Assembly (NCBI GenBank): GCA_048320885.1
Contig: JBLWFJ010000001.1
Location: 1,349,642 to 1,413,641 of the forward strand
Length of the DNA stretch: 64,000 nucleotides
Source of the DNA: Nannocystaceae bacterium ST9
Lineage (GTDB): Bacteria; Myxococcota_A; Polyangia; Nannocystales; Nannocystaceae
Direction: 5' to 3'
Positions 15,970 through 40,194 of the stretch are shown here, piece by piece. The position numbers were made by a program, and so were the translations under genes. Position 1 is the stretch's first letter; each line of letters begins with the position of its first letter. A model generated the notes under the pieces. The model ran no database searches, was not told the DNA's origin, and saw only the letters and a list, made by a program, of their open reading frames with translations.

Positions 15970-17682
15970 ATGCGACCCCTACTCACGATCTCTTCGTTAT
16001 CGACCCTCGCGCTCGGCCTCGGCCTCGCGCTCGCGCCCACGCCCGCCGACGCCTGCGGCGGGACCTTCTGCGACGGCGGCGGACCGACGGTGATGCCCGT
16101 CGATCAGACCGGCGAGAACATCCTGTTTTGGATCGATCACTCGGGCACGGAGCCGCACACCGAGGCGCACATTCAGATCCAGTACGAGGGCGAGGCGCAG
16201 GACTTCGCGTGGATCATCCCGGTCCAGCAGGTCCCCGAGGTCCTGGTCGGCAACCAGGCGCTCTTCGACAACCTGCTCGCCGCGACCGTCCCGACCTTCA
16301 CGATCACCACCACCAGCCAGACCTGCGACGACGGCTCGGTCGGGCTGTGTGCCGCGCGGGCCGAGGACAGCCAGTTCGCCGACGACGAGGCCGGTGACAT
16401 TGGCGGCGACGAAGGCGACACCGGCGACGGGACCGGCGGGCCCGAGATCCTCGATCGTGGGTTCGCGGGCGCCTTCGAGTACGTCGTGCTGACCGGCGAC
16501 TCCGTCCAGGAGATCGTCGACTGGCTCGACATGGCCGGCTACGCCCAGGACGACGACGCACCCCCGATCCTGCAAGAGTACCTCGACGACGACTTCGTGT
16601 TCGTCGCCGTCAAGCTGCGCGGCGGCGTCGACGTCGACGAGATCCATCCGCTCGCGATCCGCTACCCCGGCGTCGAGCCCTGCATCCCGATCAAGCTGAC
16701 CCGGATCGCCGCCGTCGACGACATGGCCATCCGCGCGTTCTTCCTCGGCGAGTCGCGGGCCGCCCCGATGAACTGGCCGCACGTGGTGCTCAACCCGGTC
16801 GCGTTCGATTGGGTCAACACCGCCAGCAACTACCTCGAGGTCGCCTCGCTGGCGATCGACGAGGCCGGCGGGCGAGCCTTCCTCACCGAGTACGCCGGCA
16901 TCGACGACATCGTCTCGACCAGCGGGGTCGACAGCCCGGCTTGGAACCCGAGCGCGTTCGAGGCGATCGAGCCGGTCGACGTCGTCGACGAGCTGACCAG
17001 CCAAGGCCTGGGCCTGACCTGCGACCCGTTCTCGAACGTGTGCAGCTTCGGCCACCCGCAGGTCGAGCCGCTGCTCGCCAAGTACCTGCCGGCCCCCGAT
17101 GGCGTGGACCCCTACGAATTCTGGGGCTCGCTCGCGTCCTACGAGGGCCTGATCGACCTCGCCGCCTGGTCGGGCACCGGCTTCGCCACCGACTTCGCCG
17201 AGCGGATCTCGACCCCGGGTCAGCACGCGATCGAGATGCTCGAGAGCGCCTCCTACCTGACCCGCCTGATGACCCTGCTCTCCCCGCACGAGATGATCGA
17301 GGACCCGACCTTCCACGAGACCGACTCGCTGCCCACGCTCGGCAACCAGTTCTCGGCCACGCGGACGATCGCCTGCGAGACCAACGACTGGGTCGACCTG
17401 CCCGACGAGCGCCAGGTCGCGCTGACCAACGGCAGCCTCTACCCCAGCATCGAGGGCATGCCCTTCGCCGAACGGATCGAGCAGATCCCGGCCATGGGCC
17501 CTGCCCAGATCACCACCGACAACCGCGCGACGATCGACGACCTGCTCGCCGACTGGAACGCCGGCAAGCTCTCGGGGCCCGAGCCCGGCTGCGCCGTCAC
17601 CCGCCTGCGGGCCGAGGCGCTGCTGACCATGCTCGCGCTGTTCGGGATCGCCGGGGCGACCCGCCGTCGGCGTCGGGGATGA
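15970..17682 (+). CDS. DUF2330-family secreted protein with MYXO-CTERM-like tail, paralog 2
   Basis: ORF trimmed to ATG 15970 (MRPLLTISSLSTLALGLGLALAPTPADACGGTFC). Collinear with paralog 1 along its whole length. Tail GCAVTRLRAEALLTMLALFGIAGATRRRRRG. Confidence 0.75.
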   Translation: MRPLLTISSLSTLALGLGLALAPTPADACGGTFCDGGGPTVMPVDQTGENILFWIDHSGTEPHTEAHIQIQYEGEAQDFAWIIPVQQVPEVLVGNQALFDNLLAATVPTFTITTTSQTCDDGSVGLCAARAEDSQFADDEAGDIGGDEGDTGDGTGGPEILDRGFAGAFEYVVLTGDSVQEIVDWLDMAGYAQDDDAPPILQEYLDDDFVFVAVKLRGGVDVDEIHPLAIRYPGVEPCIPIKLTRIAAVDDMAIRAFFLGESRAAPMNWPHVVLNPVAFDWVNTASNYLEVASLAIDEAGGRAFLTEYAGIDDIVSTSGVDSPAWNPSAFEAIEPVDVVDELTSQGLGLTCDPFSNVCSFGHPQVEPLLAKYLPAPDGVDPYEFWGSLASYEGLIDLAAWSGTGFATDFAERISTPGQHAIEMLESASYLTRLMTLLSPHEMIEDPTFHETDSLPTLGNQFSATRTIACETNDWVDLPDERQVALTNGSLYPSIEGMPFAERIEQIPAMGPAQITTDNRATIDDLLADWNAGKLSGPEPGCAVTRLRAEALLTMLALFGIAGATRRRRRG

Positions 17683-17815: not shown

Positions 17816-18355
17816 ATGGTCCATCCGGTCCAGAGCGTGGTCGAGTCGCTCTACGCCGCCGGGCGCTGCCCACGGCTGCACGTCAACGCGACGTGCGAGG
17901 GCGTCGTGTGTCCCGACTTCATCCGCGAGCAGTGGCAGGAGCGTCTGATCATCGATCTCGACGCCACCTACCCGCTCGACCTCTCGTTCACCGACGAAGG
18001 CATCGGAGCCGACCTCTCGTTCGGCGGCTACGTGACCCGCTGCGCCTTCCCCTGGAAGGCGATCTACGTGGTCGCCGATCGTGCCACCGGCCGCGGGATC
18101 GTGCTCGACCAGAACATGCCCGAGTCGGTCCGCCGCAGCCGTCACCAGCCCGTGACCGGCCCGCTCCCGCCCGGCGCCGAGCTGCGGCCCGCGCCCGCGC
18201 CCGAGCCCGACATTCGTCCGGCTCGCGTGAAGCCGGCCCAGCCGATCGCCAAGCCCAGCGCCGTCCCGCAGAGCTCCGCGTCGAGCGGCTCCGGGCACGA
18301 AGGCGAGGCTCAGCGCCGCCGGGCCGCGTTCAAAGTCATCGACGGCGGAGGCTGA
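17816..18355 (+). CDS. SspB-like ClpXP adaptor (stringent starvation protein B family)
   Basis: Aligns by eye to E. coli SspB: P.LHVNAT.EGVVCP...LIIDL...LDLSF.DEGI.ADLSFGG....C.FPW.AIYVVADRATGRGIVL. A disordered Pro/Ala linker follows, then a short C-terminal tag, AAFKVIDGGG. Confidence 0.55.
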   Translation: MVHPVQSVVESLYAAGRCPRLHVNATCEGVVCPDFIREQWQERLIIDLDATYPLDLSFTDEGIGADLSFGGYVTRCAFPWKAIYVVADRATGRGIVLDQNMPESVRRSRHQPVTGPLPPGAELRPAPAPEPDIRPARVKPAQPIAKPSAVPQSSASSGSGHEGEAQRRRAAFKVIDGGG

Positions 18356-18676: not shown

Positions 18677-19444
18677 GTGCCCTTCGCCCCTGCCCTGCTC
18701 GCCGCGACGCTCGCGGTGGTGTTCCTCGCCGCGCTGGTCCGCACGACCTGGGGCTTCGGTGACGCGGTCGTGGCGATCCCGCTGCTGAGCTTGCTGGTCA
18801 GCATGCAGGTCGCCTCGCCGATGCTGGTGATGGTCAGCATCGTGCTCTCGCTGCTGCTCTTGCGCCGAGGCATGAGCCTGCTCGACTTCGGCGTGATCGC
18901 CCGGCTCCTGCTCGGAGCGCTGGCCGGCATCCCGCTCGGGCTGCTCGTGCTGACCGACCTGCCCGAGTCGCTCGCGCGCAAGGGCCTGGGCGGCGTGCTG
19001 CTCGGGTTCGCGATCTGGTCGCTGATCCGCGCTCGCCGAGCGAAGCCCGCGCTCGCGCGCGAGCCCACGCCACCGCTCGCGCTGGCCAAGGCGCTCCCGC
19101 TCGACCTCGGGTTCGGCGTGCTGGTCGGCGCATGCAGTGCGGCCTTCGACATCTCCGGCCCGGTCTTGCTGATCCACGCGACCGCCCGGCGATGGACGCC
19201 CGAGCAGCTGCGCATGAACTTGCAGGCCGTGTTCCTGCCGCTCGGGTTGCTGACGATGACCGGCCACGCGCTCTCGGGCCTGTGGACGCGCGACGTGCTC
19301 CTGCTCGCGGCCTGGTGCCTGCCGGTGGTGATGCTCGCGCGAGTGTTCGGCGAGCGGCTGCGGGTCCGACTCGAAGGCCAGCGCGGGGTGGTCGTGCTCT
19401 ACCTGCTGATCTTCGCGCTCGGCGTGCTGATGCTCGCGGTCTGA
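18677..19444 (+). CDS. TauE/SafE (DUF81) family anion exporter
   Basis: 255 aa, 7-8 TM. N-terminal GFGDAVVAIPLL and second-half GACSAAFDISGPVLL repeat text typical of TauE/SafE. Confidence 0.8.
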   Translation: MPFAPALLAATLAVVFLAALVRTTWGFGDAVVAIPLLSLLVSMQVASPMLVMVSIVLSLLLLRRGMSLLDFGVIARLLLGALAGIPLGLLVLTDLPESLARKGLGGVLLGFAIWSLIRARRAKPALAREPTPPLALAKALPLDLGFGVLVGACSAAFDISGPVLLIHATARRWTPEQLRMNLQAVFLPLGLLTMTGHALSGLWTRDVLLLAAWCLPVVMLARVFGERLRVRLEGQRGVVVLYLLIFALGVLMLAV

Positions 19445-19547
19445 GCGGATCTTTATGCGTTCTTGATCCCCGCCGGCCCGCTTCCGCATGCCGGCCCGAC
19501 ACCGCGCCGCCCAGGCCCGACTACGCTGCGCGCCGGAGACCCTGGCC

Positions 19548-19688
19548 ATGCCCGAACTCGAAGTCGTGCTCGAGCGCCTCGTCGGCGTGATCGTGCTCGT
19601 GATGCTCGTGACGCTCGCCCTGCTCGCGACCGTGTCGATCGTCTGGACCCTGGCCAGCGACGATCACGAGCAAGACCGGCTCGGGTGA
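19548..19688 (+). CDS. 46-aa single-TM sORF upstream of the kinase gene
   Basis: Internal ATG of ORF 19488..19688: MPELEVVLERLVGVIVLVMLVTLALLATVSIVWTLASDDHEQDRLG. G/C third positions are strong. Ends 17 nt before the kinase ATG. Confidence 0.4.
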   Translation: MPELEVVLERLVGVIVLVMLVTLALLATVSIVWTLASDDHEQDRLG

Positions 19689-19705
19689 GCGAAGATGGTC
19701 GCGGC

Positions 19706-20821
19706 ATGCCGACGCGCACCCCCGCTCGCGTTCCGCTCGTGCTCGAGTTCGTGCTCGCGTTGGTGGTCGTCGCCGCGGTCAGCCTGGTCGCGCTGCTGCT
19801 CGAGCCCTTCCTCGCGCAGACCGACCACGTGATGCTCTACCTGCTCGGGGTGATCGCGGTCGCGTTCCGAGCCCGGCGTGGCCCGGCCTTGCTCGCCGCG
19901 GTCGCGAGCGTGGCGGCCTTCGACTTCCTGTTCGTCGAGCCGCGCTTCACCTTCGCGATCAGCGACACCCGCTACCTGCTGACCTTCGCGGTCATGGCGA
20001 CGATCGGCGTGGTCGTGGTCTCGCTGGTCGCCGAGGTCCGCAAGCAGGAGCGCGTCGCGTTCGAGCGCGAGGTCGCGGTTCAGGGCGAGCGGCTGCGCTC
20101 GGCCTTGCTGGCCTCGGTCTCGCACGATCTTCGCACGCCGCTCGGGGCGATCCTCGGGGCCGTGACCACGCTCGAGCAAGATCGCGAGAAGCTCGATCCC
20201 GGCGTGCAGACCAGCTTGCTGGCCAGCATCCACGACCAGACCGAGCACCTCAACCGACTGCTGCGCAACCTGCTGGAGATGACCCGGCTCGAGGGCGGCG
20301 CGGTCGTGCTCGCGCGCGAGCTGGCGGCGATCGAGGAGCCGATCGGCACGGTGCTGGCCTCGCTGACCCACCGGATCGGCGATCGGCGGATCGAGGTCGA
20401 GCTCGACGCGGTCGAGGGGCCGCTCTTCGCGACCTTCGATCCGATCGCGGTCGAGCTCGTGCTCAGCAACCTGATCGAGAACGCGCTGCGCTACGGCGGC
20501 GATCCGATCGAGATTCGAGCGGCGCGCGAGGGCGATGCGATCGCCGTGCGCGTGCTCGACCGTGGGCCCGGGCTCGATGAACACACGCTCGCCCACGCGT
20601 TCGAGAAGTTTCAGCGCGGGCTGGTCGGCGAGCGCAAGGGCGGCCCGGGCTCGGGCGGCGCCGGGCTCGGGCTGGCGATCGTCCGCAGCCTGGTCGAGGC
20701 CAGCGGCGGGCGCGTGTGGGCCCGCAACCGCGACGACGGACGGGGAGCCGAATTCGGGTTCACGCTCCCGCGCGCCGAGCTGCCGATCTTGCCCGAGGGG
20801 CTCCCGGAGGACTCGCCATGA
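19706..20821 (+). CDS. kdpD: KdpD-type histidine kinase lacking the N-terminal sensor domains (TM/DUF4118-like + HisKA + HATPase)
   Basis: ORF 19463..20821 trimmed to ATG 19706. Four TM helices (DHVMLYLLGVIAVAF...), H-box SVSHDLRTPL, N/G boxes NLIENALRY and GGAGLGLAIV. ATGA overlap with kdpE. Confidence 0.8.
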   Translation: MPTRTPARVPLVLEFVLALVVVAAVSLVALLLEPFLAQTDHVMLYLLGVIAVAFRARRGPALLAAVASVAAFDFLFVEPRFTFAISDTRYLLTFAVMATIGVVVVSLVAEVRKQERVAFEREVAVQGERLRSALLASVSHDLRTPLGAILGAVTTLEQDREKLDPGVQTSLLASIHDQTEHLNRLLRNLLEMTRLEGGAVVLARELAAIEEPIGTVLASLTHRIGDRRIEVELDAVEGPLFATFDPIAVELVLSNLIENALRYGGDPIEIRAAREGDAIAVRVLDRGPGLDEHTLAHAFEKFQRGLVGERKGGPGSGGAGLGLAIVRSLVEASGGRVWARNRDDGRGAEFGFTLPRAELPILPEGLPEDSP

Positions 20822-21519
20822 CCGAGCTGCGCCCGACCATCCTGGTCGTCGAAGACGAGCCGCAGATGCGCCGCTTCCTGCGGGCGCTGATCGGCAGCCA
20901 CGGCTACGCGCTGGTCGAGGCCGAGACCGGCCGCGAGGCGCTCGCGCTGGCGGCCAGCCATCGCCCCGATCTGATCGTGCTCGACCTCGGCCTGCCCGAC
21001 GTCGACGGGCTCGAGCTGGTCGGCAACCTGCGCGGCTGGACGCAGACGCCGATCATCGTGGTCTCGGCGCGCGGGCAAGAGCAAGACAAGGTCCGCGCGC
21101 TCGATCTCGGCGCCGACGACTACCTGACCAAGCCGTTCGGATCGCACGAGCTGCTCGCCCGGATCCGCGTGGCCCTGCGCCACGCCGCCCACGTCGGCGA
21201 GCAGGACGGCCCGGTGTTTCGCTCGCACGGCCTGATGGTCGACCTCGCGGCCCGCCGAGTCGCGCGCGGCGACGACGAGGTCCACCTGACCCCGCTCGAG
21301 TACAAGCTGCTGACCACGATGATCGAGCACGCCGGCAAGGTGCTCACGCATCGCCAGCTGCTCGAGCGCGTGTGGGGGCCCGCGCACGCCGACGACACCC
21401 AATACCTGCGCGTCTACATGGCCCAGCTGCGCCGCAAGATCGAGGCCGATCCGGCCCGGCCGCGGCTGCTCAAGACCGAGACCGGCGTCGGCTATCGGCT
21501 CGAGGTCGACGAGGGTTGA
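20818..21519 (+). CDS. kdpE: OmpR-family response regulator KdpE
   Basis: ATG 20818. REC domain (ILVVEDEP...LIVLDLGLPDVDG...TKPF) plus winged helix (LTPLEYKLLTTMIEHAGKVLTHRQLL...GVGYRL). Lies next to kdpFABC. Confidence 0.85.
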   Translation: MTELRPTILVVEDEPQMRRFLRALIGSHGYALVEAETGREALALAASHRPDLIVLDLGLPDVDGLELVGNLRGWTQTPIIVVSARGQEQDKVRALDLGADDYLTKPFGSHELLARIRVALRHAAHVGEQDGPVFRSHGLMVDLAARRVARGDDEVHLTPLEYKLLTTMIEHAGKVLTHRQLLERVWGPAHADDTQYLRVYMAQLRRKIEADPARPRLLKTETGVGYRLEVDEG

Positions 21520-21620
21520 GGCTTGCAACTCGCACGATCGCGATCACTGGGGCTCGCGATTCGCAGGGCCTCGCGAACCCGCATCGGCGCGAGACCCAGA
21601 CCCAGCCAGCCGAGCCGCGC

Positions 21621-21636
21621 TGGCACGAGCGATGCA
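21621..21636 (+). promoter_or_regulatory. sigma-54-type promoter upstream of kdpF-kdpABC
   Basis: TGGCACG-AGCG-ATGCA versus the consensus TGGCACG-N4-TTGCW (one mismatch, exact GG/GC spacing). Lies in the 230-bp gap after kdpE. Predicted start near 21647. Confidence 0.45.
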
Positions 21637-21649
21637 CGGCGAGCGGGGC

Positions 21650-21754
21650 ATGCAGATCCTCGTGTTTCTCGCCATCGGCTGGGTCGCCTACGCGGCTTGC
21701 CTGGCCATCCTGCCCGCGATCGATCGCGTCGTTCATGAAGGAGTCGGGCGATGA
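21650..21754 (+). CDS. 34-aa hydrophobic sORF immediately upstream of kdpF
   Basis: MQILVFLAIGWVAYAACLAILPAIDRVVHEGVGR. G/C third positions over the first ~27 codons. Its stop overlaps the kdpF ATG (ATGA). Too short for the ORF track. Confidence 0.25.
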   Translation: MQILVFLAIGWVAYAACLAILPAIDRVVHEGVGR

Positions 21755-21831
21755 CCTGGATCTCCGCCGTGTGTGCCGGGCTGGCGTTCGGCTACCTGCT
21801 CTTCGCGATCTTGCGGCCCGAACGATTCTGA
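21751..21831 (+). CDS. kdpF: K+-transporting ATPase subunit F
   Basis: 26 aa: MTWISAVCAGLAFGYLLFAILRPERF. The C-terminal YLL.A.LRPE(R/K)F is the KdpF signature. GAAGGAG SD upstream. 13 nt before kdpA. Confidence 0.75.
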   Translation: MTWISAVCAGLAFGYLLFAILRPERF

Positions 21832-21844
21832 ACCGGAGACCACC

Positions 21845-23515
21845 GTGCACGACCTCGTCTACGCCTTCGCGCTGCTCGCCGCAGCGCTCGCGCTGTCCTG
21901 GCCGCTCGGGCGAGCCATGGCCGCCATCGCCCAACCTCCACGCAGCCAGCCCGACCGGCTCGATCGCGCGATCGTCCGGGTGCTCGGACCGGCCGCGATC
22001 GCCGAGCAGACCTGGAAGAGCTACGCGCTCGCGCTGCTCGGGTTCAACGCGCTGATGTTCACGATCACCTACGCGATCTTGATCTTGCAGGGCTCGCTGC
22101 CGCTCAACCCGGCCGGCAAACCCGGGCTCGAGCCCTCGCTGGCGTTCAACACCGCGATGTCGTTCGCGACCAACACCAACTTGCAGCACTACTCCGGCGA
22201 GGTCGCGCTGTCCTACTTCTCGCAGCTGTTCGGGCTGACCTGGCTGCAGTTCGTGTCGGCCGCGACCGGCATCGCGGCGTTGGCCGCCATCGCGCGAATG
22301 CTCGGTCCGAGCGGCGCCGTCGGCAACTATGCCCGCGATCTGATCCGCTTCACCCTGCTGATCCTGCTGCCGCTCGCGCTGGTCGTCGGCGCCACGCTGA
22401 TCGTCGCCGGCACACCGATGACCTTCGCCGGGCCGGTCGAGCTGACCACGCTCGAGGGCGACTCGCAGACGATCGCTCGCGGACCGGTCGCGGCGATGGT
22501 CGCGATCAAGCAGCTCGGGACCAACGGCGGCGGCTACTTCGGCCCCAACAGCACGCACCCGCTCGAGAGCCCGAGCTTCTTCACCTGCTCGCTCGAGAAC
22601 CTGTCGATCCTCGTGGTCTCGATGGCCTGCCTGTGGATGTTCGGCCGACTGATCGGGCGGATGCGCGACGCCTGGCTGCTCTTCGCGGTCATGGCCGCGC
22701 TCTTCGTGGCCATGGTGATCCCGGCCGTGCTGCTCGAGGCCCAGCCCAACCCCGGCCTCGCCGATCTGCCGATCGTCGAAGCCCGCGGCAACCTCGAGGG
22801 CAAGGAGCTGCGCTTCGGCAGCGCGGCCGGCCCGGTCTGGGCGGTGACGACGACCGCGACCAGCAACGGCTCGGTCGCGGCCATGCACGACAGCCTCAAC
22901 CCGCTGACCGGGCTGCTGCCGATGATCGGCATGTGGCTCAACGTCAGCTACGGCGGCGTCGGGGTCGGGCTGATCGGCATGCTGCTCTACGTGGTCGTCG
23001 CGGTGTTCATCGCCGGGCTGATGGTCGGGCGCACGCCCGAGTATCTCGGGCGCAAGGTCGAGGTCCGCGAGATGAAGCTGGCCGCGCTGGCCTTGCTGCT
23101 GCATCCCTTGCTGATCCTCGGTGGCACCGCATTGTTCGTGGCCACGCCCCTCGGGACCGAGACCATGTCCAACCCGGGCAGCCACGGGTTCTCGCAGGTG
23201 CTCTACGAGATGAGCTCGGCCGCGGCCAACAACGGCTCGGGCTTCGAGGGCCTGGCCGACAACACCACGCCCTGGAACCTGATCACCGGGCTGTGGATGT
23301 TCCTCGGTCGCTACCTGCCGATCGTGCTGCCGCTTTCGATCGCGGCCTCGCTCGCCCGCAAGCAACGCGTACCCGAGAGCGCCGGCACGCTGCGAACCGA
23401 CTCGCCGACCTTCGCGCTGGTCCTGCTCGGCTGCGTGGTCCTGCTCGGCGCGCTGCTCTTTCTTCCCGCCGCCGTGCTCGGCCCGATCGCCGAACACCTG
23501 GAGATGACCCGATGA
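21845..23515 (+). CDS. kdpA: K+-transporting ATPase subunit A
   Basis: ORF 21773..23515 trimmed to GTG 21845 (556 aa). Texts [36 protein letters not shown]. Polytopic. Confidence 0.9.
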
Positions 23516-25572
23516 ACGAACCCATCACGCGGCGAGCGAAGACTCGCTCGTTGGTCACGCCCGAGCTGGCCCGCGCCGCGCTGCGCGAGTCGGTGATCAT
23601 GCTCGACCCCCGACGAATGGCCCGCAACCCGGTGATGTTCGTGACCGAGGTCGGGGCCCTGCTGAGCACGATCGCGGCCGCGCTCGCGCTCGGCTCGGGC
23701 GACGCCGGCTTCCCGATCACGATCTCGATCGTGCTGTGGCTGACGGTGCTGTTCGCCAACTTCGCCGAGGCGCTGGCCGAGGCGCGCGGCAAGGCGCAGA
23801 CCCAGGCGCTGCGAGCCACTCGCACGCAGACCGAGGCTCGTCGGCGGCGCGACGACGGCACGATCGAGTCGGTCGGGTCGACCGAGCTGCGCAAGGGCGA
23901 CGTGATCGTCGTCGCGCTCGGCGAGCTGATCGCCGCCGACGGCGAGATCATCGAGGGCGTGGCCAGCATCGACGAGTCGGCGATCACCGGCGAGTCGGCG
24001 CCGGTCGTGCGCGAGGCCGGAGGTGATCGCTCGGGCGTGACCGGAGGCACCCGCGTGCTCTCGGACTCGATCGTCGTGCAGGTCACCGCCGCGCCCGGCG
24101 ACTCGTTCCTCGATCGAATGATCGCGCTGGTCGAGGGCGCGCAGCGGCAAAAGACGCCCAACGAGATCGCCCTGACCGTCACGCTCGCCGGGCTCACGCT
24201 GGCGTTCTTGCTGGTCACGGTCTCGCTGGTCCCGATGGCCGCCTACTTCGACGCGACCATCGACATCCCGACCGCGGTCTCCCTGCTGGTCTGCCTGATC
24301 CCGACCACGATCGGCGGGCTGCTGGCGGCGATCGGGCTGGCCGGCATGGATCGGGCGTTGGCCGCCAACGTGCTGGCCAAGTCGGGCAAGGCGGTCGAGC
24401 TGGCCGGCGACATCGACACGGTCCTGCTCGACAAGACCGGCACGATCACCCGCGGTAACCGGCAAGCCACGCATCTGTATGCGGCCGGGACCTTCGAGGA
24501 GCGCGAGCTGGCCGAGGCCGCCATGTTGGCCTCGCTCGCCGACACGACCCCGGAGGGCCGCTCGATCGTCGGGCTCGGCGAGGGCCTGCTCGGGCGGCGG
24601 CCGAGCGAGCCGCTCGGGGCCAAGCCGATCAGCTTCTCGGCCCAGACCCGGCTCAGCGGGATCGACCTCGCCGAGGGCACGAGCATCCGCAAGGGCTCGG
24701 TCGACGCGATCGCCAAGTGGTTGATCGAGCATGGCAGCTCGCTGCCCGACGCGGTCCGCACGATGACCGAGGCGATCGGCCGCGAGGGCGCGACCCCGCT
24801 GGTCGTCGTGAGGGCGCGACCCGGCCAGGCCGCGCACACGCTCGGCGTGGTCCAGCTGACCGACGTGCTCAAGCCCGGGATCGCGGCTCGGCTCGCCCGC
24901 CTGCGCGCGATGGGCCTGCGCGTGGTCATGGTCACCGGCGACAACCCGCTGACCGCCAAGGCGATCGCCGGCAAGGCCGGGGTCGACGACTTCATCGCCG
25001 AGGCCACGCCCGAGGACAAGCTGGCCTACATCCGCCGCGAGCAGGCCGAGGGCCGGCTGATCGCGATGATGGGCGACGGGACCAACGACGCGCCCGCGCT
25101 CGCCCAGGCCGACATCGGCGTGGCCATGAACTCGGGCACCCAGGCGGCCAAGGAGGCCGGCAACATGGTCGATCTCGACAGCGATCCGACCAAGCTGATC
25201 GAGGTGGTCGAGATCGGCAAGCAGCTGTTGATGACCCGCGGCGCGCTGACGACCTTCTCGATCGCCAACGACGTCGCCAAGTACTTCGCGATCGTGCCGG
25301 CGCTCTTCGTCGCCGCGCTGCCGCAGCTGGCCGCGCTCGACGTGATGGCCCTCGGCTCGCCGCGCAGCGCGATCTTGTCGGCGGTGCTCTTCAACGCCAT
25401 CGTGATCCCGCTGCTGGTGCCGATCGCCCTGCGGGGCGTTCGCTACCGGCCCGAGGGCGCCGACAAGCTGCTGCGCCGCAACTTGCTGATCTACGGGCTC
25501 GGCGGGGTCGCGGCGCCCTTCGTCGGGATCAAGCTCTTCGACCTCGCGCTCGCGCTGATCGGGATGCCATGA
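23512..25572 (+). CDS. kdpB: K+-transporting P-type ATPase subunit B
   Basis: ATGA overlap with kdpA. Motifs [55 protein letters not shown]. 686 aa, in frame with the tail of ORF 22633..25572. Confidence 0.95.
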
Positions 25573-26153
25573 CCAGCTTCACGTCCACGCTTCGAATCCT
25601 CTCGGGTCTCACGCTCGGCACGCTCGCGCTGGTCGGCGCCTACGCGCTGATCTTGCTCGGCGTCGGGCTCGGCCTCGCGCCGGCGGCCGCCGAGGGCTCG
25701 CTGATCCGCGGGCCCGAAGGCGAGCTCGTCGGCAGTCGCCTGGTCGGCCAGTCGTTCACCGAGCCCGGCTACCTGTGGCCGCGGCCCTCGGCGGTCGACC
25801 ACGCCGCGGACGCGGCCGGCGGCAGCAACCTCGCGGCCAGCAACCCGGCCCTGCGCGAGCGAGTGCTCGCCGACCTCGCTCGCCATGCGGCCAGCGACGA
25901 GCGACCGATCCCCGCCGATCTCGTGACCGCGTCGGGCTCGGGCCTCGACCCCGACATCACGCTGGCCGGCGCGCTCTACCAGGCCCCGCGGATCGCCGCC
26001 GCACGCCGGGTCGATCGCCACGAGATCGAAGAGCGGCTGCGCTCGCTCGCCCACACGCCCAACCCCTGGTCGCCGCCGCTGATCAACGTGCTCGAGACCA
26101 ACCTCGAGCTCGATCGCACCTTCGGCGCGCTCCCGACGAGGCCGGCGGAATGA
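25569..26153 (+). CDS. kdpC: K+-transporting ATPase subunit C
   Basis: ATGA overlap with kdpB. One N-terminal TM, texts GSRLVGQSF and [12 protein letters not shown]. 194 aa. Confidence 0.9.
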
Positions 26154-27292
26154 GCCCGACGGATCGCGCCGAGGACTTCCTCGCGCTGGTTCGTCGGGCT
26201 CGCCAAGGTCGGCTCAAGCTCTTCCTCGGGCCCGCGCCCGGCGTCGGCAAGACCTACCGGATGCTGCAAGAGGCCCAGCAACTGAGCGCGACCGGGGTCG
26301 ACGTGGTCATCGGCGTGATCGAGACCCACGGACGACCCGAGACCGCGGCGCTGATCGAGGGGCTCGAGCAGGTGCCGATGCGGCGGATCGAGTATCGCGG
26401 GGTCGGCCTCGACGAGCTCGACCTCGACGGCGTCCTCGCCCGCGCGCCCGAGATCGCGCTGATCGACGAGCTCGCGCACACCAACGCGCCCGGCAGCCGC
26501 AACCGCAAGCGTCACCAGGACGTGCTCGATCTGCTCGAGGCCGGGATCCACGTGTTCGCCACGCTCAACGTCCAACACCTCGAGAGCCTCAACGACCTGG
26601 TCTCGCGCAGGGTCGGCGTGCAGGTCCGCGAGACCGTGCCCGACGTGTTCCTGCGCCGCGCCGATCAGATCGTCAACATCGATCTGCCGGCCGAGGATCT
26701 GCTCACCCGCCTGCGCGCGGGTCGGATCTATCCGCTCGAGCGGGTCGAGCGGGCGCTCGCCAACTTCTTTCAGGCCGGCAAGCTCGAGAGCCTGCGCGAG
26801 CTGGCCTTGCGCGAGGTCGCCGAGTCGATCGAGCGGGCCCAGCAGCGCGAGCGCGAGGTCAGCGGAGAGCGTGTGGGCCGAGTCGCGCTCAGTCGGCTGA
26901 TGGTCGGGCTCTCGAGCTCGCCGAACGCCGCGGCGCTGCTGCGTCGCGCGTCGCGACTGGCCGGTCGACTCAACGCGCATTGGTTCGCGGTCCATGTCCA
27001 GACCCGACGCGACGCGCCCGATCGGATCAGCGCGACCGACCAGCGCCGCCTGTTCGAGGCCCAACAGCTGGCGGTCGACCTCGGCGCGGAGGTCCAGGAG
27101 CTCGAGAGCGACGACGTGATCGCGGCGCTGATCGACTTCGCCAGCGCGCATGGGGTCTCGGACATCGTGATCGGGGCTCCGCCGCCGACCCACCCGATCC
27201 TGGCGTGGTTCACCCGCAGCGTCGCCCGGCGAATGCTCGACCACGCCAACCGCTTCAACCTCCACGTGCTGGCCACGGAGGTCTCGCCATGA
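26150..27292 (+). CDS. stand-alone KdpD N-terminal sensor domain plus Usp-like domain (no TM, no kinase)
   Basis: ATGA overlap with kdpC. LKLFLGPAPGVGKTYRML (P-loop), ALIDELAHTNAPGSRNRKRHQDV, TLNVQHLESLND, then Usp-like LMVGLSSSPNAAALLRRASRLA...DIVIG. 380 aa. Confidence 0.85.
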   Translation: MSPTDRAEDFLALVRRARQGRLKLFLGPAPGVGKTYRMLQEAQQLSATGVDVVIGVIETHGRPETAALIEGLEQVPMRRIEYRGVGLDELDLDGVLARAPEIALIDELAHTNAPGSRNRKRHQDVLDLLEAGIHVFATLNVQHLESLNDLVSRRVGVQVRETVPDVFLRRADQIVNIDLPAEDLLTRLRAGRIYPLERVERALANFFQAGKLESLRELALREVAESIERAQQREREVSGERVGRVALSRLMVGLSSSPNAAALLRRASRLAGRLNAHWFAVHVQTRRDAPDRISATDQRRLFEAQQLAVDLGAEVQELESDDVIAALIDFASAHGVSDIVIGAPPPTHPILAWFTRSVARRMLDHANRFNLHVLATEVSP

Positions 27293-29109
27293 CGCTGCGG
27301 ATCAAGCTCTTGCTCGCCCAGCTGCCCATGCTGCTGGCGACCGCGCTGACGATCGCGGTCGCGATGCTGGCCGCGCGTCGCTTGGGCGGCGAGCCGGACG
27401 CGATCATCGAGGAGAACTTTCGCAGCTTCGATGCCGCACGCGCGATGCTCACCGCGCTCGAGCGGATCGACGCCGAGCTGACCCGCGGCGCGCTGGTCGG
27501 TGAGCCGCCCGATCCCGCGAGCGTCGACGCGGCGGTGGCCGAGTTCGAGGCGCCGCTGGCGATTCAGCGGGACAACGTCACCGAGCCCGGCGAGCACGAG
27601 GCGACCGCCGAGCTGGTCGCGGCTTGGCAGCGCTACCGAGCCGAGCTGCCGCTCGAGCCCGGCGCGAGCCTCGAGGATCACCGCGCCCGCTCCGACCAGC
27701 TGCGCGATCGAATCGAGGTGATCTTCGCGATCAACCGCGCTGGCATGCGCAGCAAGGCGGACGCGGCTCGCGTCGAAGCTCGCCGCGAGACGATCGTGAT
27801 CGCGGCGACCGGACTGATCGCGCTGGCCGTCGCGCTGCCCTTCGGCGTCGTCCTGGTCCGTCGACTGCTGCGCCCGGTCAAGGTCATGGCCGCGACCGTG
27901 GCCCGGCTCGCCAGCGGCGACTTCGACGTCCGAGTTCGGCTCGAGGGTCGCGGCGACGACGAGGTCCATCGCTTGGCGCTCGCGTTCAACGAGATGGCCG
28001 AGCGGCTCGGGGCCTATCGCGCCAGCTCGCTCGGTGATCTGCTCGAGGCCAACCTGCGCATGCAGTCGGTCGTCGACAGCCTGCCCGAGGCCGTGCTGGT
28101 CTGCGACACCGCCGGGGTCGTGGTTCAGGCCAATGTTTCGGCGCATCGGCTCTTCGGTGAGCCGACCAGCCTCGCGCGCCTGCCCAGCTCGATCGCCGGC
28201 CCGGTCCGCGCGGTGTTCGATCGCGTGGTCCGAACCGAGCGGGCCAGCGAGTGGGCCGGGATCGCCGACGCGCTGGCCTTCCCGCGCGGGACCGAGGTCG
28301 TGTGGCTGGCCGTCGGCGCGACCCCGGTGCTGCGTGACCAACGGTTGGCCGCGGTCACGCTCGCGCTGCGCGACGTCAGCCAGGCCCGTCGACTCGAGGG
28401 CTTTCGCGGCGACCTGGTCTCGGCCGCCGCCCACGAGCTGCGGACCCCGCTGACCTCGCTGCACATGGCCGTGCATCTGTGCCTGGAGGAGGCCGCCGGC
28501 CCACTCGACGATCGCCAGAAGGATCTGCTGACGGCCGCGCGCTCCGACTGCGAGCGCCTGCAGTCGGTCGTCGACGAGCTCCTCGATCTCGCGCGGGCCG
28601 AGGCCGGCACGATCCGGCTCGAGCTGCGCCCGCTGGTCGTGCAGTCGGTCCTGCACGAGGCGCTCGCCCGCCACGAGCTCGACGCCGAGCGCCAGGGCGT
28701 CACGATCGTCGTGGTCACGCCCGAGGCCGGCCTGCGCGTGCTCGCCGATCGCTCGAGGCTCGCGCAGGTGTTCGACAACCTGATCACCAACGCGCTGCTG
28801 CACGCCGCGGGCGTCCGGCGGATCGAGCTGGGCGCCGAGCAGGTCGGCGAGCGAGTCCACTTCCGGGTCGACGACGACGGCCCCGGCATCCCGCTCGAGC
28901 TTCGGCCCCGCGTGTTCGACAAGTTCGTGCGCGGACCCGCGACCGAGGCCGAGGGCACCGGGCTCGGGCTCAGCATCGTTCGCGATCTCGTGCGAGCGCA
29001 TCGCGGCGAGGTCGGGGTCGACGACGCGGCGATCGGCGGCGCGCGAGTGTGGTTCGAGCTGCCGACCGCCGCGGACGGCGGACCGATCCACGACATGCTC
29101 GCGCCGTGA
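27289..29109 (+). CDS. sensor histidine kinase (2 TM, HAMP, PAS-like, HisKA, HATPase)
   Basis: ATG 27289 overlaps the upstream stop (ATGA). HAMP text VRRLLRPVKVMAATVARLASGDFDVRV...EVHRLALAFNEMAERL, H-box SAAAHELRTPL, G-box GTGLGLSIVRDLV. Confidence 0.85.
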   Translation: MTLRIKLLLAQLPMLLATALTIAVAMLAARRLGGEPDAIIEENFRSFDAARAMLTALERIDAELTRGALVGEPPDPASVDAAVAEFEAPLAIQRDNVTEPGEHEATAELVAAWQRYRAELPLEPGASLEDHRARSDQLRDRIEVIFAINRAGMRSKADAARVEARRETIVIAATGLIALAVALPFGVVLVRRLLRPVKVMAATVARLASGDFDVRVRLEGRGDDEVHRLALAFNEMAERLGAYRASSLGDLLEANLRMQSVVDSLPEAVLVCDTAGVVVQANVSAHRLFGEPTSLARLPSSIAGPVRAVFDRVVRTERASEWAGIADALAFPRGTEVVWLAVGATPVLRDQRLAAVTLALRDVSQARRLEGFRGDLVSAAAHELRTPLTSLHMAVHLCLEEAAGPLDDRQKDLLTAARSDCERLQSVVDELLDLARAEAGTIRLELRPLVVQSVLHEALARHELDAERQGVTIVVVTPEAGLRVLADRSRLAQVFDNLITNALLHAAGVRRIELGAEQVGERVHFRVDDDGPGIPLELRPRVFDKFVRGPATEAEGTGLGLSIVRDLVRAHRGEVGVDDAAIGGARVWFELPTAADGGPIHDMLAP

Positions 29110-29164: not shown

Positions 29165-30514
29165 GTGGACGAGCTCGAGCCGCCGCTGACCAAGACCCAT
29201 CGCGCCGCGCTGGCCATCCACGCCGAAAAACGCCCGGGTCGACTGAAGCTGCGCTTGGTCGACGGGCCGAGCGGGTCGACCGACTTCGAGCTGACCAAGC
29301 CGACGATTCAGGTCGGCCGAAGCCCGATGGCCGACCTCGTGATCGACGAGCGCTCGATCAGCAAGATCCACTTCGAGCTGCGCCTGGCCGGGGGCGGCGT
29401 CGACCTGCGCGACCGCGAGAGCACCAACGGTTGCTGGCTGCAGGGTTGTCGAGTCTTCCACGCGCGCTTGCGGGTCGGCGACTCGTTCCGCGCCGGCGAC
29501 CTCCAGTTCATGATCGTCGGCGTCGACGAGGTCGACGTCGTGGTCACCTTGGCCCCGCGCTGCGGCGCGCTGCAAGGCGCGAGCGTGGTGATGCGCGAGC
29601 TGTTCGCGTCGATCGACGCGCTCTCGCTCGCGCCGCTCGACATCCTGATCCTCGGCGAGACCGGCACCGGCAAGGAGCTGACCGCCCGCACGCTTCATCA
29701 GCTCTCCGAGCGCCGATCCAAGCCCTTCGTGACCCTCGACTGCGGCGCGATCTCGGCCTCGCTCGCCGAGGGCACGCTCTTCGGGTTTCGCAAGGGCGCG
29801 TTCACGGGCGCCGACCATGATCAGCCGGGCGTGTTCGAGGAGGCCAACCGCGGGACCATCTTCCTCGACGAGATCGGCGAGCTCGTGCCCGAGCTGCAAG
29901 TCAAGCTGCTGCGAGTGCTCGAGCGACGCGAGGTCACCCGCATCGGCGAGCCGGCCAAGCCGCGAGCGCTCGACATCCGGGTCGTCGCGGCCACGCATCG
30001 CGACTTGCGGCGCGAGGTGGCCGAGGGCCGCTTCCGCGAGGATCTGTTCTATCGCTTGGCCCGCGGCCTGATCACGCTCCCACCCCTGCGCGAGCGTGGC
30101 GAGGACATCCTCATGCTCGCCGACGATTTCCTGGGCAAGCTGCGCGACGAGTTCGGCCGCGACGTCCGAATGAGCGCCGCGTGCAGGGACGCGATGCTGC
30201 GGCATCCCTGGCCCGGCAACGTCCGCGAGCTGCGGAACTGCATCGAGCAGGCCTTCCACATCAAGCGCTCGGGCGAGCTCGCGGCGAGCGACCTGCGACT
30301 CGGCACCCTGGCGTGGAAGAGCCAAGGCACGTCCGAGCTGGCCGACGCGACCAAGACCTACGCCGACGCCCACGTCGCGCTGGACAAGGTGTTCTTGGCC
30401 AAGGTGCTCGAGAGCACGAGCGGCAACCTCTCGGAGGCGGCCCGCCGACTCGGCCTCAGCCGCGACACGCTGCGAGTCAAGCTGAAGGCCGCTCGGCTCT
30501 ACCCCGACGGCTGA
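29165..30514 (+). CDS. FHA-domain sigma-54-dependent transcriptional activator
   Basis: GTG start. FHA-like [25 protein letters not shown]...STNG, then AAA+ [18 protein letters not shown] (GAFTGA loop), [18 protein letters not shown], and a C-terminal Fis-type [19 protein letters not shown]. Confidence 0.85.
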
Positions 30515-31255
30515 GGGATTCTCGTCACCTGTCGCGCCGTCATGGTTCCGGCACGATCGTGAGCCAGACATCGACCGGTTCGTGCAACACGTCGACGCGC
30601 CAGACCCCCGAGTGCTCGAAGTCCACGATCGAGTAGTCGTCGACCAGCGTGAAGAACACCGGCTGGCGAACTCGCTCATCGAGGGCCTCTTGCTCGGTCG
30701 CTGGGTTTTCGGCCAGACAGCGCTCGTACCAGATCACCAGCCCCTCGGAGCGCTCCAGCCGGTAGGTCCCGGGCTCGGGCATGTCGATCAGGAAGCTCTG
30801 ATACATGTCCGTGGAGCCGTTGGCCTCGTTCTGATTGGTCTTCTCGTAGGGCCCGAGCGTGGCCTCGTCCTCACAGTCGAACTTCGCCTCGAACACCCAG
30901 CCACCTTCCGCTCGGGCCTCGAGCAGCAGCATGTCGGCGCACTGCCGATGTTGAATCCACATCGCCGGCGACTGGCTCGCGTAGTCCGTCGCCAGCGACG
31001 CTCCATACGCGGACTCCATGGCCGACCAGACGCCCTCGTCGTAGGTCGCGGTCCGGTAGAGCGCCGCAAATTCCTCCGGGCCCAATTGCTCGGCCAGCCA
31101 ACGCGTGAAGTGGCCTGCACGAGAATAGAAGGGGCCGAAGTCGCTCGAGTGGACCTCGGAAAACTCTCGCGGATCGGACAGCGATTCGTTGATCGAAGGC
31201 TCGAAGCTGACGGCGAGGCCCTCGGCCAAGATCGAGGGGGCACCGGTTCGAATCT
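30507..31255. repeat. segmental duplication, copy A (~750 bp)
   Basis: Matches 31837-32593 with few differences, including ~328 nt that look identical by eye (30578-30905 versus 31916-32243) and a 6-nt indel near the 3' end of the gene. It also covers the stop codon of the upstream activator gene. Confidence 0.85.
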
Positions 31256-31673: not shown

Positions 31674-31836
31674 GACCGCTCCAGTAAAGCACGCCCTTCT
31701 GGGCATCCTCCATCGCCATCCTCACGTCGAACATGCTGCGAGTCGAGCTGAAGCCCGAGGGATTCTTGGTCGGAGGCTGACGAACGACTCGTCGACCTTC
31801 GTTGTTCGGACCAGATGCGCCGCGCGAGCGCCCGAG

Positions 31837-34997: not shown

Positions 34998-35024
34998 CAA
35001 GAAGCCATAAAGAGGCGCGGCGGT

Positions 35025-40050: not shown

Positions 40051-40194
40051 GGGTCCTCCTGCTCGACTCGATTGCATGCGTCGGGCCAGCGCCGGATCGC
40101 GTCGCGCGGGCGAGATTCGGGCTTGCCACGTTTCAGCCTCGTCGCGCCGGGTTGCAGGCCCGCGCAACACGGCAATCTCTGCGATGCTGGGCGA

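Follow-up and report, generated by a model that had tools for sequence, protein, structure and literature searches.

A probable sigma-54 promoter and a conserved small hydrophobic peptide at the head of a kdp operon in a Myxococcota-like genome

Kdp is the textbook emergency K+ pump under two-component and sigma-70 control, and the kdpFABC operon is classically driven by KdpE acting at a sigma-70 promoter. The closest described alternative is the DVU3334-DVU3339.1 cluster of Desulfovibrio vulgaris Hildenborough, a sigma-54 kdp regulon established by experiment (Rajeev et al. 2011, PMC3333781; Kazakov et al. 2015, PMC4641369). The sigma-54 regulon of D. vulgaris includes kdp (PMC4641369), and binding of the DVU3334 regulator to its palindrome, published as CGTTACATTTTGTAACG at -149 of DVU3339.1, was shown by DAP-chip (PMC3333781). 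According to a 2024 preprint, a system that reacts to K+ limitation independently of KdpDE had yet to be described (10.1101/2023.07.05.547876).

In this study, the kdp locus within a 64-kb stretch of DNA (64,000 nucleotides, hereafter the window) was compared with 160 other kdp loci, giving a survey of 161 loci from many phyla. The source genome is high in GC (70%) and Myxococcota-like. The locus shares with kdpFABC-kdpDE of E. coli the order kdpF, A, B, C, a KdpE ortholog and the KdpD domains, and differs from it in a predicted -24/-12 element instead of -35/-10, a split KdpD, a kdpE gene placed upstream rather than downstream and an extra first cistron, here termed X. The features shared with D. 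vulgaris are a probable sigma-54 promoter ahead of the kdp operon, a KdpD split between a kinase and a distinct K+-sensor/Usp protein, and a GAFTGA-bearing response regulator of the NtrC type; in Desulfovibrio-type loci X is likewise present, with a KdpF-like ORF behind it. The window differs from D. vulgaris in phylum and in its 70% GC, in an activator gene that lies about 4 kb off the kinase gene and is paired with a PtsN-like EIIA gene, in an FHA-type activator gene inserted after the kinase gene, and in a KdpD-C/KdpE pair directly upstream. The coordinates of all features are collected in Table 1. Start/stop overlaps of 4 nt join X to kdpF and run from kdpA through the kinase gene, and a gap of 13 nt separates kdpF from kdpA. 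The kdpF product was recognised by the KdpF profiles and aligns to the KdpF chains of the E. coli KdpFABC structures.

Table 1 Position, strand and basis of assignment of the features at the kdp locus of the window
Feature	Position	Strand	Basis
KdpD C-terminal half, DUF4118-HisKA-HATPase kinase	19463-20821	+	Domain and NCBIfam searches
kdpE, OmpR-family response regulator, adjoining the promoter region on its 5' side	20818-21519	+	Pfam; NCBIfam KdpE
Candidate activator site TTGCAACTCGCAC	21523-21535		TGCA-N3-TGCA with one mismatch
Probable sigma-54 -24/-12 element TGGCACGAGCGATGCA	21621-21636	+	Consensus match, conservation and co-occurrence with enhancer-binding protein (EBP) genes
Predicted transcription start	21646-21648	+	11-13 nt 3' of the -12 GC (21634-21635), sigma-54 geometry
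sORF X, 34-aa single-helix peptide, divergent family member	21650-21754	+	Similarity to X of L001, L002 and L020
kdpF, 26 aa	21751-21831	+	PF09604, E=3e-8; TIGR02115, 28 bits vs cutoff 26.85
kdpA	21845-23515	+	PF03814, E=2e-214
kdpB, P-type ATPase	23512-25572	+	Start overlaps kdpA stop
kdpC	25569-26153	+	PF02669
KdpD N-terminal sensor + Usp, kinase-less	26150-27292	+	PF02702 + PF00582; NF038185
HAMP-PAS histidine kinase	27289-29109	+	Pfam
FHA-AAA+-HTH EBP	29165-30514	+	Pfam; intact GAFTGA AAA+
Receiver-AAA+(GAFTGA)-HTH EBP, proposed kdp activator	33184-34521	-	Pfam REC, Sigma54_activat, HTH_8; identity to kdp-linked activators
PtsN-like EIIA gene	34518-35000	-	PF00359; best NCBIfam match PtsN, under cutoff; overlaps start of activator gene

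The gap that is flanked by the kdpE stop (21517-21519) and the kdpF ATG (21751) on the plus strand contains TGGCACGAGCGATGCA, which departs from TGGCACG-N4-TTGCW by a single mismatch (A for T at position 12) and keeps the canonical GG/GC spacing. The original prediction had reported a near-consensus sigma-54 site with one mismatch in this gap, and its sequence and coordinates agree with ours. The element is the sole site of this kind in the whole window. Taken by itself and window-wide, the motif is not significant and is compatible with chance: one match stood against 0.36 expected, and at least one match arose in 30 of 100 shuffles. The window-wide expectation for TGGCAC-N6-TGCW was 0.10, and motifs scoring 7/8 had a background rate of 0.006 per kb per strand. 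The site gains its significance because it lies in a co-oriented intergenic gap of 130 nt, from the kdpE stop (21519) to the sORF ATG (21650) with the first operon gene nearby, and because its orthologous position is conserved in relatives.

The final scan for association between motif and activator was run 5' of the first operon gene in each locus, which covered loci starting F-B-X-A-C. A GGCA-N7-TGC block occurs at the orthologous position in L001, L002, L020, L070, L082, L085 and L110, which together with the window make up the eight Myxococcota-type loci. This block is the sole conserved one in the flanks when loci are anchored on the motif, and is present in all related kdp loci that combine an intergenic gap with a linked activator of the NtrC type. 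Motifs with a score of 5/8 or more were located 29-91 nt ahead of the first small ORF in the window, L001, L002, L020, L070, L082, L015, L089, L094 and L096, 71 nt 5' of kdpF in L110, and 126 nt 5' of kdpF in L085, a short contig. The loci with such a motif, L085 and L110 included, are those having an NtrC-type activator or its kinase nearby, and about 100 loci with kdpDE only had no motif or isolated, chance-level matches scoring 5. The conservation of the -24/-12 element upstream of kdp in relatives, which the original prediction had put forward as a check, was thus found at the orthologous position.

Transcription from sigma-54 promoters starts about 11-13 nt downstream of the -12 GC. By this arithmetic the predicted start would leave a leader of 2-4 nt before the ATG at 21650, in line with the nearly leaderless message, starting just 5' of this ATG, that had been proposed earlier. 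The kdp operon of the window very probably starts at this sigma-54 promoter, given the match, its position and its conservation. No rpoN gene was found within the 64-kb window, and the two EBP genes encoded there imply the presence of sigma-54. A riboswitch or leader RNA was also considered for the gap and rejected, as the Rfam scan of 20500-22500 returned none that was relevant, and the gap and the sORF mRNA, folded separately, gave unremarkable z-scores of -1.5 and +1.6.

Upstream of the -24/-12 element, 4 nt past the kdpE stop and about 97 nt 5' of the -24 element, lies the palindrome TTGCAACTCGCAC, which is present in the window as a single copy with one mismatch. The conserved form of this palindrome is TTGCA-N3-YGCA, and the same palindrome precedes the motif by 95-112 nt in L001, L002, L020 and L082, with several copies in L070. 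TGCA-N3-TGCA sites numbered 12 against 0.6 expected, at a conserved distance. The architecture agrees with that of the DVU3334 site CGTTACATTTTGTAACG: D. vulgaris has a comparable 5-N3-5 palindrome (TTACA-TTT-TGTAA, against TTGCA-ACT-CGCAC in the window) at about 120-150 nt upstream, whereas the half-site is TACA there and TGCA here. On these grounds the palindrome is a candidate site for the activator, and we infer their pairing.

The activator of the kdp promoter is likely the receiver-domain protein encoded at 33184-34521. This protein is 70% identical to the kdp-linked activator of L001, the nearest relative, and 63% identical to that of L002, and it carries GAFTGA and the conserved C-terminal helix ..ILGINPSTLWRRLKRF. 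Its gene lies 11.5 kb from the promoter on the opposite strand, and the roughly 4 kb separating it from the kinase gene include the FHA-type activator gene; the pairing of EIIA and activator genes recurs in L001 and L110. The best NCBIfam match of the kinase-less sensor gene, NF038185 (KdpD-like non-kinase potassium sensor), scores 349 bits and stays below the cutoff of 550. A HAMP-PAS kinase gene following the KdpD-N gene is also found in L002, L020, L070, L082 and L094 (45-48% identity), and the kinase of the window is presumed to be the partner of the NtrC-type regulator. The window thus contains a DVU3334-type module, composed of a kinase-less KdpD-N/Usp sensor and a separate kinase 3' of kdpC and of an orthologous NtrC-type regulator.

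The original prediction had named a different activator, the FHA-domain EBP, which would tie K+ uptake to Ser/Thr-kinase signalling. Its gene begins 55 nt past the kinase gene in the same orientation, co-transcription with kdp is possible, and its product has an HTH and an intact GAFTGA AAA+ domain. However, no FHA-type activator was found beside kdp in the 160 other loci, and the C-terminal helix of the protein differs from the conserved helix ..LGIDPSTLWRRLKRY of the kdp-linked activators, though the window shares its upstream site type with those loci; the ortholog of the conserved activator is, moreover, encoded nearby. This protein was rejected as the kdp partner on its window-only adjacency and its different DNA-binding helix. 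It probably stands outside the kdp circuit, and its activation of the kdp promoter appears very improbable.

A second alternative follows the E. coli model, in which the -24/-12 match would be fortuitous or vestigial and transcription of the operon would come either from a sigma-70 promoter in the gap that depends on KdpE or from kdpD-C/kdpE read-through. In favour of this model, a bona fide kdpE, whose best NCBIfam match is KdpE (286 bits; cutoff 325), lies on the sORF strand with its end 130 nt upstream, and neither a convincing terminator nor a stable hairpin was seen behind it. The window-wide motif statistics are weak, and other loci of the KdpD-C, KdpE, X, F, A order lack the sigma-54 motif. 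Against this model, the motif, its position and the palindrome are kept across the eight Myxococcota-type loci and Desulfovibrio-type loci, and the full sigma-54 module, with non-kinase sensor, kinase and orthologous activator, is present here. Scanning of the gap returned no sigma-70 consensus or terminator, and no T-rich KdpE-box-like repeats were detected in the window, unlike in KdpE-type loci, where they are visible; both scans are weak in DNA of 70% GC. We regard this model as quite improbable as the sole explanation of kdp transcription. The window unusually retains the KdpD-C kinase/KdpE pair just 5' of the operon, which makes dual control, or transcription reading through from kdpE, possible; the KdpE and sigma-54 routes are compatible, dual input is plausible, and KdpE occurs together with the sigma-54 module in 2 of the 161 loci. 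The sigma-54 input to kdp proposed in the original prediction is supported by the conserved block, its position, the upstream site, the EBP-carrying relatives and the D. vulgaris precedent.

The cistron that would be transcribed first is the 34-codon ORF opened by the ATG at 21650 (MQILVFLAIGWVAYAACLAILPAIDRVVHEGVGR), whose TGA (21752-21754) overlaps the kdpF ATG as ATGA, a coupling found likewise in L001. X was present in 114 of the 161 kdp loci and in three gene orders, always adjoining kdpF or kdpA, directly 5' of one or the other and on the same strand; most loci have both X and KdpF. Strong family members occur, for example, in Mesorhizobium, Rhizobium and Ochrobactrum, where the order is F-B-X-A-C. 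Members are 22-35 aa long and form one hydrophobic helix, in which a near-invariant Gly is followed four positions on by an aromatic residue, with [DE][RK] where the helix ends. When the profile came from one gene order, it recovered members of the others (L002 at E=9e-9, L001 at 1.5e-4). The pN/pS ratio was 0.60 in frame, whereas the two alternative frames gave 1.08 and 1.44; close pairs gave 0.19-0.30. By this measure the X family is under purifying selection. X is absent from Pfam, NCBIfam and PDB, and is named "hypothetical" where it has been called. Fusions were not found: the 125 profile matches among 1.84 billion representative proteins were, where true, all free-standing small ORFs. 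The RefSeq plasmid kdp loci that were retrieved are of the F-A-B or F-B-A-C type and lack X.

The existence of an extra hydrophobic sORF whose stop overlaps the kdpF ATG had been predicted, and homologs at the same position under purifying selection bear it out, including in relatives upstream of kdpF. Its description as KdpF-like holds for the architecture: X and KdpF (PF09604/TIGR02115) share the size class, a hydrophobic helix, a charged C-terminal end and a place next to kdpA. It does not hold for the sequence, where the motif of X (..LGL..F..L..LT....DR) differs from that of KdpF (..YL..A..RPE.F) and X leaves the KdpF models unmatched. The window sORF had no Pfam or NCBIfam KdpF match at E up to 10, and profile-profile alignment of X with KdpF (hhalign) gave a probability of 48% with negative similarity. 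Consequently, the sORF as a KdpF paralog was not supported.

The window copy is the most divergent of the family, and it resembles the X peptides of the nearest relatives. Compared with X of L001, L002 and L020, its pairwise scores were 57, 56 and 51, with shuffles averaging about 20 +/- 4 (z about 8), and it ranked first among 1161 sORFs of the window. Its summed score to the four closest X peptides was 195, whereas architecture-preserving shuffles reached 92.6 +/- 13.3 and 221 KdpF decoys at most 128. A copy so divergent might instead be a decaying, untranslated remnant of X, with translation beginning at kdpF from the AAGGAG (21738-21743) that lies inside the 3' end of X ahead of kdpF. Leave-one-out family profiles, in which the window sORF was not a seed, miss it (E about 2-17; 1.7 in one case, 17 in another, and one beneath the reporting threshold of E about 10). 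The helix contains a proline, no Shine-Dalgarno sequence was found ahead of the ATG, while L001, L002, L020, L070 and L082 have one, and the spacer falls about 10 nt short of that in L001. The conserved E-G residues of the tail coincide with the kdpF ribosome-binding site. Some kdp loci also do without X, such as the sphingomonad F-B-A-C type. Against decay, the frame is intact, the length is typical of the family and the ATGA coupling to kdpF is kept. The near-invariant Gly (G10), the aromatic position (Y14, Phe in most members) and D25-R26 after the helix are retained, and the similarity to the nearest relatives lies far above shuffles. GC3 is about 89% over the first 27 codons, which is typical of coding sequence here, and leaderless initiation is possible at an ATG lying 2-4 nt from the 5' end. 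A decaying remnant is, in our judgement, possible but somewhat unlikely, and we infer that the window copy of X is translated.

X most likely adopts an N-out/C-in orientation and is most likely, like KdpF, an accessory subunit of the pump. Alternatively, X may be translated without being a pump subunit, modulating sensor kinases instead, or its translation itself may couple ribosomes onto kdpF or kdpA. Among known cases, MgrB modulates PhoQ, and mycobacterial KdpF was reported to act on KdpD. Kinases are frequent targets of small membrane peptides (review PMC12648545), overproduction of KdpF reportedly affects mycobacterial physiology (PMC3618439), and X is start/stop-coupled to the following gene in several loci. 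However, X accompanies both regulator types, KdpDE and NtrC-type, and it abuts kdpA or kdpF-kdpA, never kinase genes, even within F-B-X-A-C. Amino-acid conservation and pN/pS below 1 further indicate that the peptide sequence itself is selected. A role outside the pump is therefore unlikely in our estimate, and association with the pump is the preferred reading.

This reading has parallels among other very small proteins. The literature yielded no usable account of a second small Kdp peptide or of kdpG; the cyanobacterial kdpG is said to have been described by Ballal and Apte in Anabaena as a small ORF within kdp operons, between kdpB and kdpC. Both kdpG and X are additional small hydrophobic kdp ORFs. 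AcrZ, CydX and MgtS/MgtR (review PMC12648545) resemble X in being very small, often unannotated and encoded beside a membrane complex, which in their case they bind; they have no sequence relationship to X. The E. coli structures (e.g. 5mrw, 6hra) are of a four-subunit KdpFABC in which no counterpart of X was found, and that pump works with four subunits.

Considered as a whole, we find it likely that the locus combines a sigma-54 promoter, a circuit built on the receiver-type EBP, and X as a first cistron associated with the pump. In such a mechanism, the receiver-domain NtrC-type EBP would bind the palindrome upstream of the promoter and activate sigma-54 RNA polymerase through ATP hydrolysis. 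Its phosphorylation would be set by the HAMP-PAS kinase together with the KdpD-N/Usp potassium sensor, both encoded at the 3' end of the same operon. X, the first cistron on this nearly leaderless message, would be translated and would join the pump.

A wider reading can be offered only tentatively, and we hold it at somewhat less than even confidence: X may be a fifth Kdp membrane component in most non-enterobacterial phyla, binding KdpA beside or instead of KdpF, and two sensory routes (KdpD-C/KdpE, and the HAMP-PAS kinase with the NtrC-type activator, possibly modulated by EIIA) may be integrated at one kdp promoter region. If the fifth-component reading is true, X would have been overlooked because all structures and biochemistry of the pump come from E. 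coli, where X is missing, and because gene callers skip ORFs of 25-35 codons. For much of bacterial diversity, the E. coli-based picture of KdpFABC as four subunits would then be incomplete. As a conserved peptide of 22-35 aa beside kdpA, X would require a new small-protein model in annotation pipelines. Apart from this wider reading, the comparison points to control of kdp by sigma-54 and NtrC-type activators, whose earlier documentation was limited to D. vulgaris, as a recurrent alternative in Myxococcota-type loci, Desulfovibrio-type loci and several unassigned metagenomic loci, and the combined signature of promoter and binding site can be used for predicting the sigma-54 kdp module elsewhere.

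The genes of the kdp region (GC content about 70%) were mapped using Pfam and NCBIfam scans together with inspection of start codons. Neighbouring genes from X, the 34-codon sORF, through the HAMP-PAS kinase gene are joined by 4-nt overlaps, except that 13 nt separate kdpF from kdpA. A pair of adjacent DUF2330 paralogs, an SspB-like gene and a TauE-family gene lie upstream of the kdp regulator genes.

Features of the kdp region and further sites in the window
Feature	Position	Strand
TGGCACTTCGATGGCA, possible -24/-12-like site	11577-11592	-
DUF2330 paralogs	13531-15930; 15934-17682	
SspB-like gene	17816-18355	
TauE-family gene	18677-19444	
KdpD C-terminal kinase half	19463-20821	+
kdpE	20818-21519	+
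Gap, 130 nt	21520-21649	
TGCA-N3-TGCA palindrome	21523-21535	
Nested repeats	21544-21599	
Sigma-54 -24/-12 element	21621-21636	+
Predicted transcription start	~21647	
X (34-codon sORF)	21650-21754	+
kdpF	21751-21831	+
kdpA	21845-23515	+
kdpB	23512-25572	+
kdpC	25569-26153	+
Kinase-less KdpD-N/Usp sensor	26150-27292	+
HAMP-PAS kinase	27289-29109	+
FHA-type sigma-54 activator	29165-30514	+
Unassigned ORFs, ~2.6 kb	30540-33135	
Receiver-AAA+-HTH sigma-54 activator	33184-34521	-
PtsN-like EIIA gene	34518-35000	-
Metallo-beta-lactamase-fold gene	39187-40050	-
TGGCCCGACGCATGCA, second sigma-54-like motif	40073-40088	-

The -24/-12 element, the sORF and its ATGA overlap with kdpF were found exactly as the original prediction described them. 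The element occurs once in the window (0.36 expected; at least one match in 30 of 100 shuffles); these statistics by themselves are not compelling, and the weight is supplied by context. The comparison set comprised 160 kdpA loci from other genomes (L-numbers), 80 of them from species-representative genomes and 80 from metagenomes. Loci were annotated using the window's proteins and small-ORF profiles, and the 300 nt preceding the first gene of each operon were scanned for GG-N10-GC plus at least 5 of the 8 remaining consensus positions. The motif lies 29-91 nt 5' of the first small ORF in the window, L001, L002, L020, L070, L082, L015, L089, L094 and L096, 71 nt 5' of kdpF in L110, and 126 nt 5' of kdpF in L085, a short contig; additional candidates occur in L142, L153, L155, L157 and L160. 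The motif-bearing loci are those with an NtrC-type activator, or its kinase, close by, and approximately 100 kdpDE-only loci have no motif or isolated score-5 matches at the background rate (0.23 per kb per strand). When eight Myxococcota-type loci were stacked on the motif, GGCA-N7-TGC was the sole conserved block and the flanks had diverged. Conservation in relatives, proposed earlier as a check, was observed upstream of kdp in loci with a linked NtrC-type activator or kinase; the predicted kdp promoter is conserved and tracks an activator gene.

Elsewhere in the window, TGGCCCGACGCATGCA lies 22 nt (AGGAGG included) before the ATG at 40050 that starts the downstream metallo-beta-lactamase-fold gene, and TGGCACTTCGATGGCA may be a further site; it is located in a gap (about 10867-11930) that is fairly rich in AT and apparently non-coding. 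In L002 (~7300-7540), L020 (~7300-7590) and L072 (~7300-7805), the gene just upstream of the kdp promoter region encodes a product that ends in ..TAWF, a C-terminus typical of outer-membrane beta-barrel proteins; this product may be a kdp-linked porin.

A TGCA-N3-TGCA palindrome (at most one mismatch; TTGCAACTCGCAC in the window) is present 95-112 nt upstream of the motif in the window, L001, L002, L020 and L082, and L070 carries five copies; 12 palindrome sites were observed against 0.6 expected. Desulfovibrio-type loci have TTACATTTTGTAA in the equivalent position. The site of DVU3334, the kdp activator of Desulfovibrio vulgaris, is CGTTACATTTTGTAACG at -149 of DVU3339.1 (supplement of Rajeev et al. 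2011, PMC3333781), and in this species kdp has been placed in the sigma-54 regulon and KdpD is split (Rajeev et al. 2011, PMC3333781; Kazakov et al. 2015, PMC4641369). Given the conserved palindrome and the published DVU3334 site and regulon, the window therefore has a circuit recognisably homologous to one with experimental support. Nested direct and inverted repeats, GGGC(C)TCGCGA / TCGCGA(A/G)CCC, follow the palindrome, upstream of the -24 element; their stability as RNA is not unusual (z = -1.5), and they could conceivably be protein-binding sites, possibly those of KdpE.

The kdp-linked activators of L001, L002, L020, L070, L015, L003, L004 and L058 all contain receiver, AAA+ and HTH domains and share the C-terminal helix ..EEAARVLGIDPSTLWRRLKRY. 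Using the L001 and L002 activators as tblastn queries, an ortholog was identified in the window (70% and 63% identity), with a receiver domain, GAFTGA and the helix ..ILGINPSTLWRRLKRF. The FHA-type protein, named in the original prediction as an activator just downstream of the locus, has a different C-terminal helix, and no FHA-type activator adjoins kdp in the 160 other loci; these findings and the ortholog argue against it as the kdp activator. In L002, L020, L070 and L082 the receiver-type activator gene comes immediately after the kinase gene, on the other strand; in the window ~4 kb, FHA-type gene included, separates the two. We infer that the receiver-AAA+-HTH activator is paired with the palindrome. 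In the window, a PtsN-like EIIA gene and the start of the activator gene overlap, a pairing also seen in L001 and L110; L107 was grouped with these loci as regards a link between the EIIA gene and kdp. An EIIA gene also follows kdpE in many alphaproteobacterial loci (L013, L025, L047, L057, L065, L076, L077, L106, L112), which suggests that EIIA of the PTS-Ntr type is widely linked in genomes to kdp regulators of either kind. The window's EIIA gene, in an apparent operon with the activator gene, recalls the control of KdpD by PtsN in E. coli and rhizobia (summarised in 10.1101/2023.07.05.547876).

Conservation of the sORF, likewise put forward for checking, was confirmed: in L001, L002, L020 and L070 a homologous small ORF comes before kdpF, and profile searches of all small ORFs of the loci detected this single-helix family, X (consensus MxxxYLLLGLxxFALLFxLTxAxDRx), in 114 of 161 loci. 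With F, A, B and C denoting kdpF, kdpA, kdpB and kdpC, the gene order is B-X-A in 63 loci, X-F-A in 38 and F-X-A in 8. The hosts include Alphaproteobacteria, Planctomycetota, Verrucomicrobiota, Gemmatimonadota, Nitrospirota, Hydrogenedentota and Myxococcota, as well as relatives of Desulfovibrio and Bilophila. A profile from B-X-A members alone finds X of both other orders, down to E=9e-9 (search space 1161 ORFs). Across 49 genes, pN/pS is 0.60 in frame versus 1.08 and 1.44 in the other frames, and it is 0.19-0.30 in close pairs. Judged from these comparisons, X is a real family under selection. It matched nothing in Pfam or NCBIfam (E up to 10) or among PDB chains. Matches numbered 87 (E<=0.001) in a word-indexed search of 5.8 billion proteins and 125 in a HMMER search covering 1.84 billion representatives; every true match in both is a free-standing short ORF that has no name or is called "hypothetical protein". 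No description of X was found in the literature searched, and one may exist outside it, cyanobacterial kdpG in particular being a candidate. X is apparently a family that has gone undescribed in a well-studied operon, and is not demonstrably related to KdpF.

Small hydrophobic ORFs also precede kdpF in L134, L138, L139 and L142 (~100 nt 5' of kdpF) and in L152, L153, L155 and L157; they end in ..KCVDWFEKI, or start with MNLEFWLPAMF.. and end in ..CEKI, and look like distant X variants. Because such variants score weakly or go undetected with the X profile, the true family size probably exceeds the count. Among the nearest KdpA relatives (many of L005-L080 and L084-L122), two orders other than that of E. 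coli are common, F-B-X-A-C and F-X-A-C-B; a Sphingobium plasmid (L161) is RefSeq-annotated as F-B-A-C without X.

Membership of the window copy requires caution. Its 56-bit HMM score is circular, the sORF having been among the seeds of that model, and three profiles built without it failed to detect it (E=1.7; unlisted; E=17). Several tests nevertheless tie it to the X peptides of the closest relatives. It aligns to those of L001, L002 and L020 with scores of 57, 56 and 51 (shuffle means ~20 +/- 4), and the summed score against the four closest peptides is 195 versus 92.6 +/- 13.3 for shuffles keeping the helix-DR-tail layout; 221 KdpF decoys reached at most 128, and the sORF ranked first of 1161 window small ORFs. 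It has kept the Gly, aromatic residue and D-R, is of family length, and has the ATGA junction with kdpF as in L001. Unlike its relatives, it has no Shine-Dalgarno sequence; its promoter-to-ATG spacer is ~10 nt shorter, and the predicted leader is 2-4 nt versus roughly 12-24 nt in L001, L002, L020 and L070. Translation of the window copy is reasonably probable, and it may alternatively be inactive. Whether or not X is translated, kdpF has its own AAGGAG within the tail of the sORF.

The pair upstream of the promoter is true KdpD-C/KdpE by best family match. The two halves of KdpD are encoded apart, the kinase half upstream of kdpE and the sensor/Usp half after kdpC; L012, L123, L135 and L152 show this split too, with no sigma-54 motif, and it is therefore an arrangement of its own rather than an assembly artefact. 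KdpE is combined with an NtrC-type activator only in the window and L136 (161 loci, window included). No T-rich KdpE box, as seen in KdpE-type loci, was found in the window, and the kdp gap showed neither a sigma-70 consensus nor a terminator. KdpE may act here from a second promoter, by read-through or on another target.

The best supported mechanism for kdp here is a route from sensor and kinase through the NtrC-type regulator to sigma-54. K+ limitation would be sensed by the KdpD-N/Usp protein and the HAMP-PAS kinase, which would phosphorylate the NtrC-type regulator; the latter would bind the palindrome and remodel sigma-54 polymerase at the -24/-12 element. The resulting transcript would encode X, KdpF, KdpA, KdpB, KdpC, the sensor and the kinase, and would thereby give positive feedback. 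X would insert N-out/C-in, following the positive-inside rule with its C-terminal D-R and charged tail, and may associate with KdpA, as suggested solely by its invariable position next to kdpA or kdpF-kdpA.

The promoter and regulator of the window represent a further member of the DVU3334 type, which is known but little-known, with local variations in that KdpE coexists and the activator is displaced.
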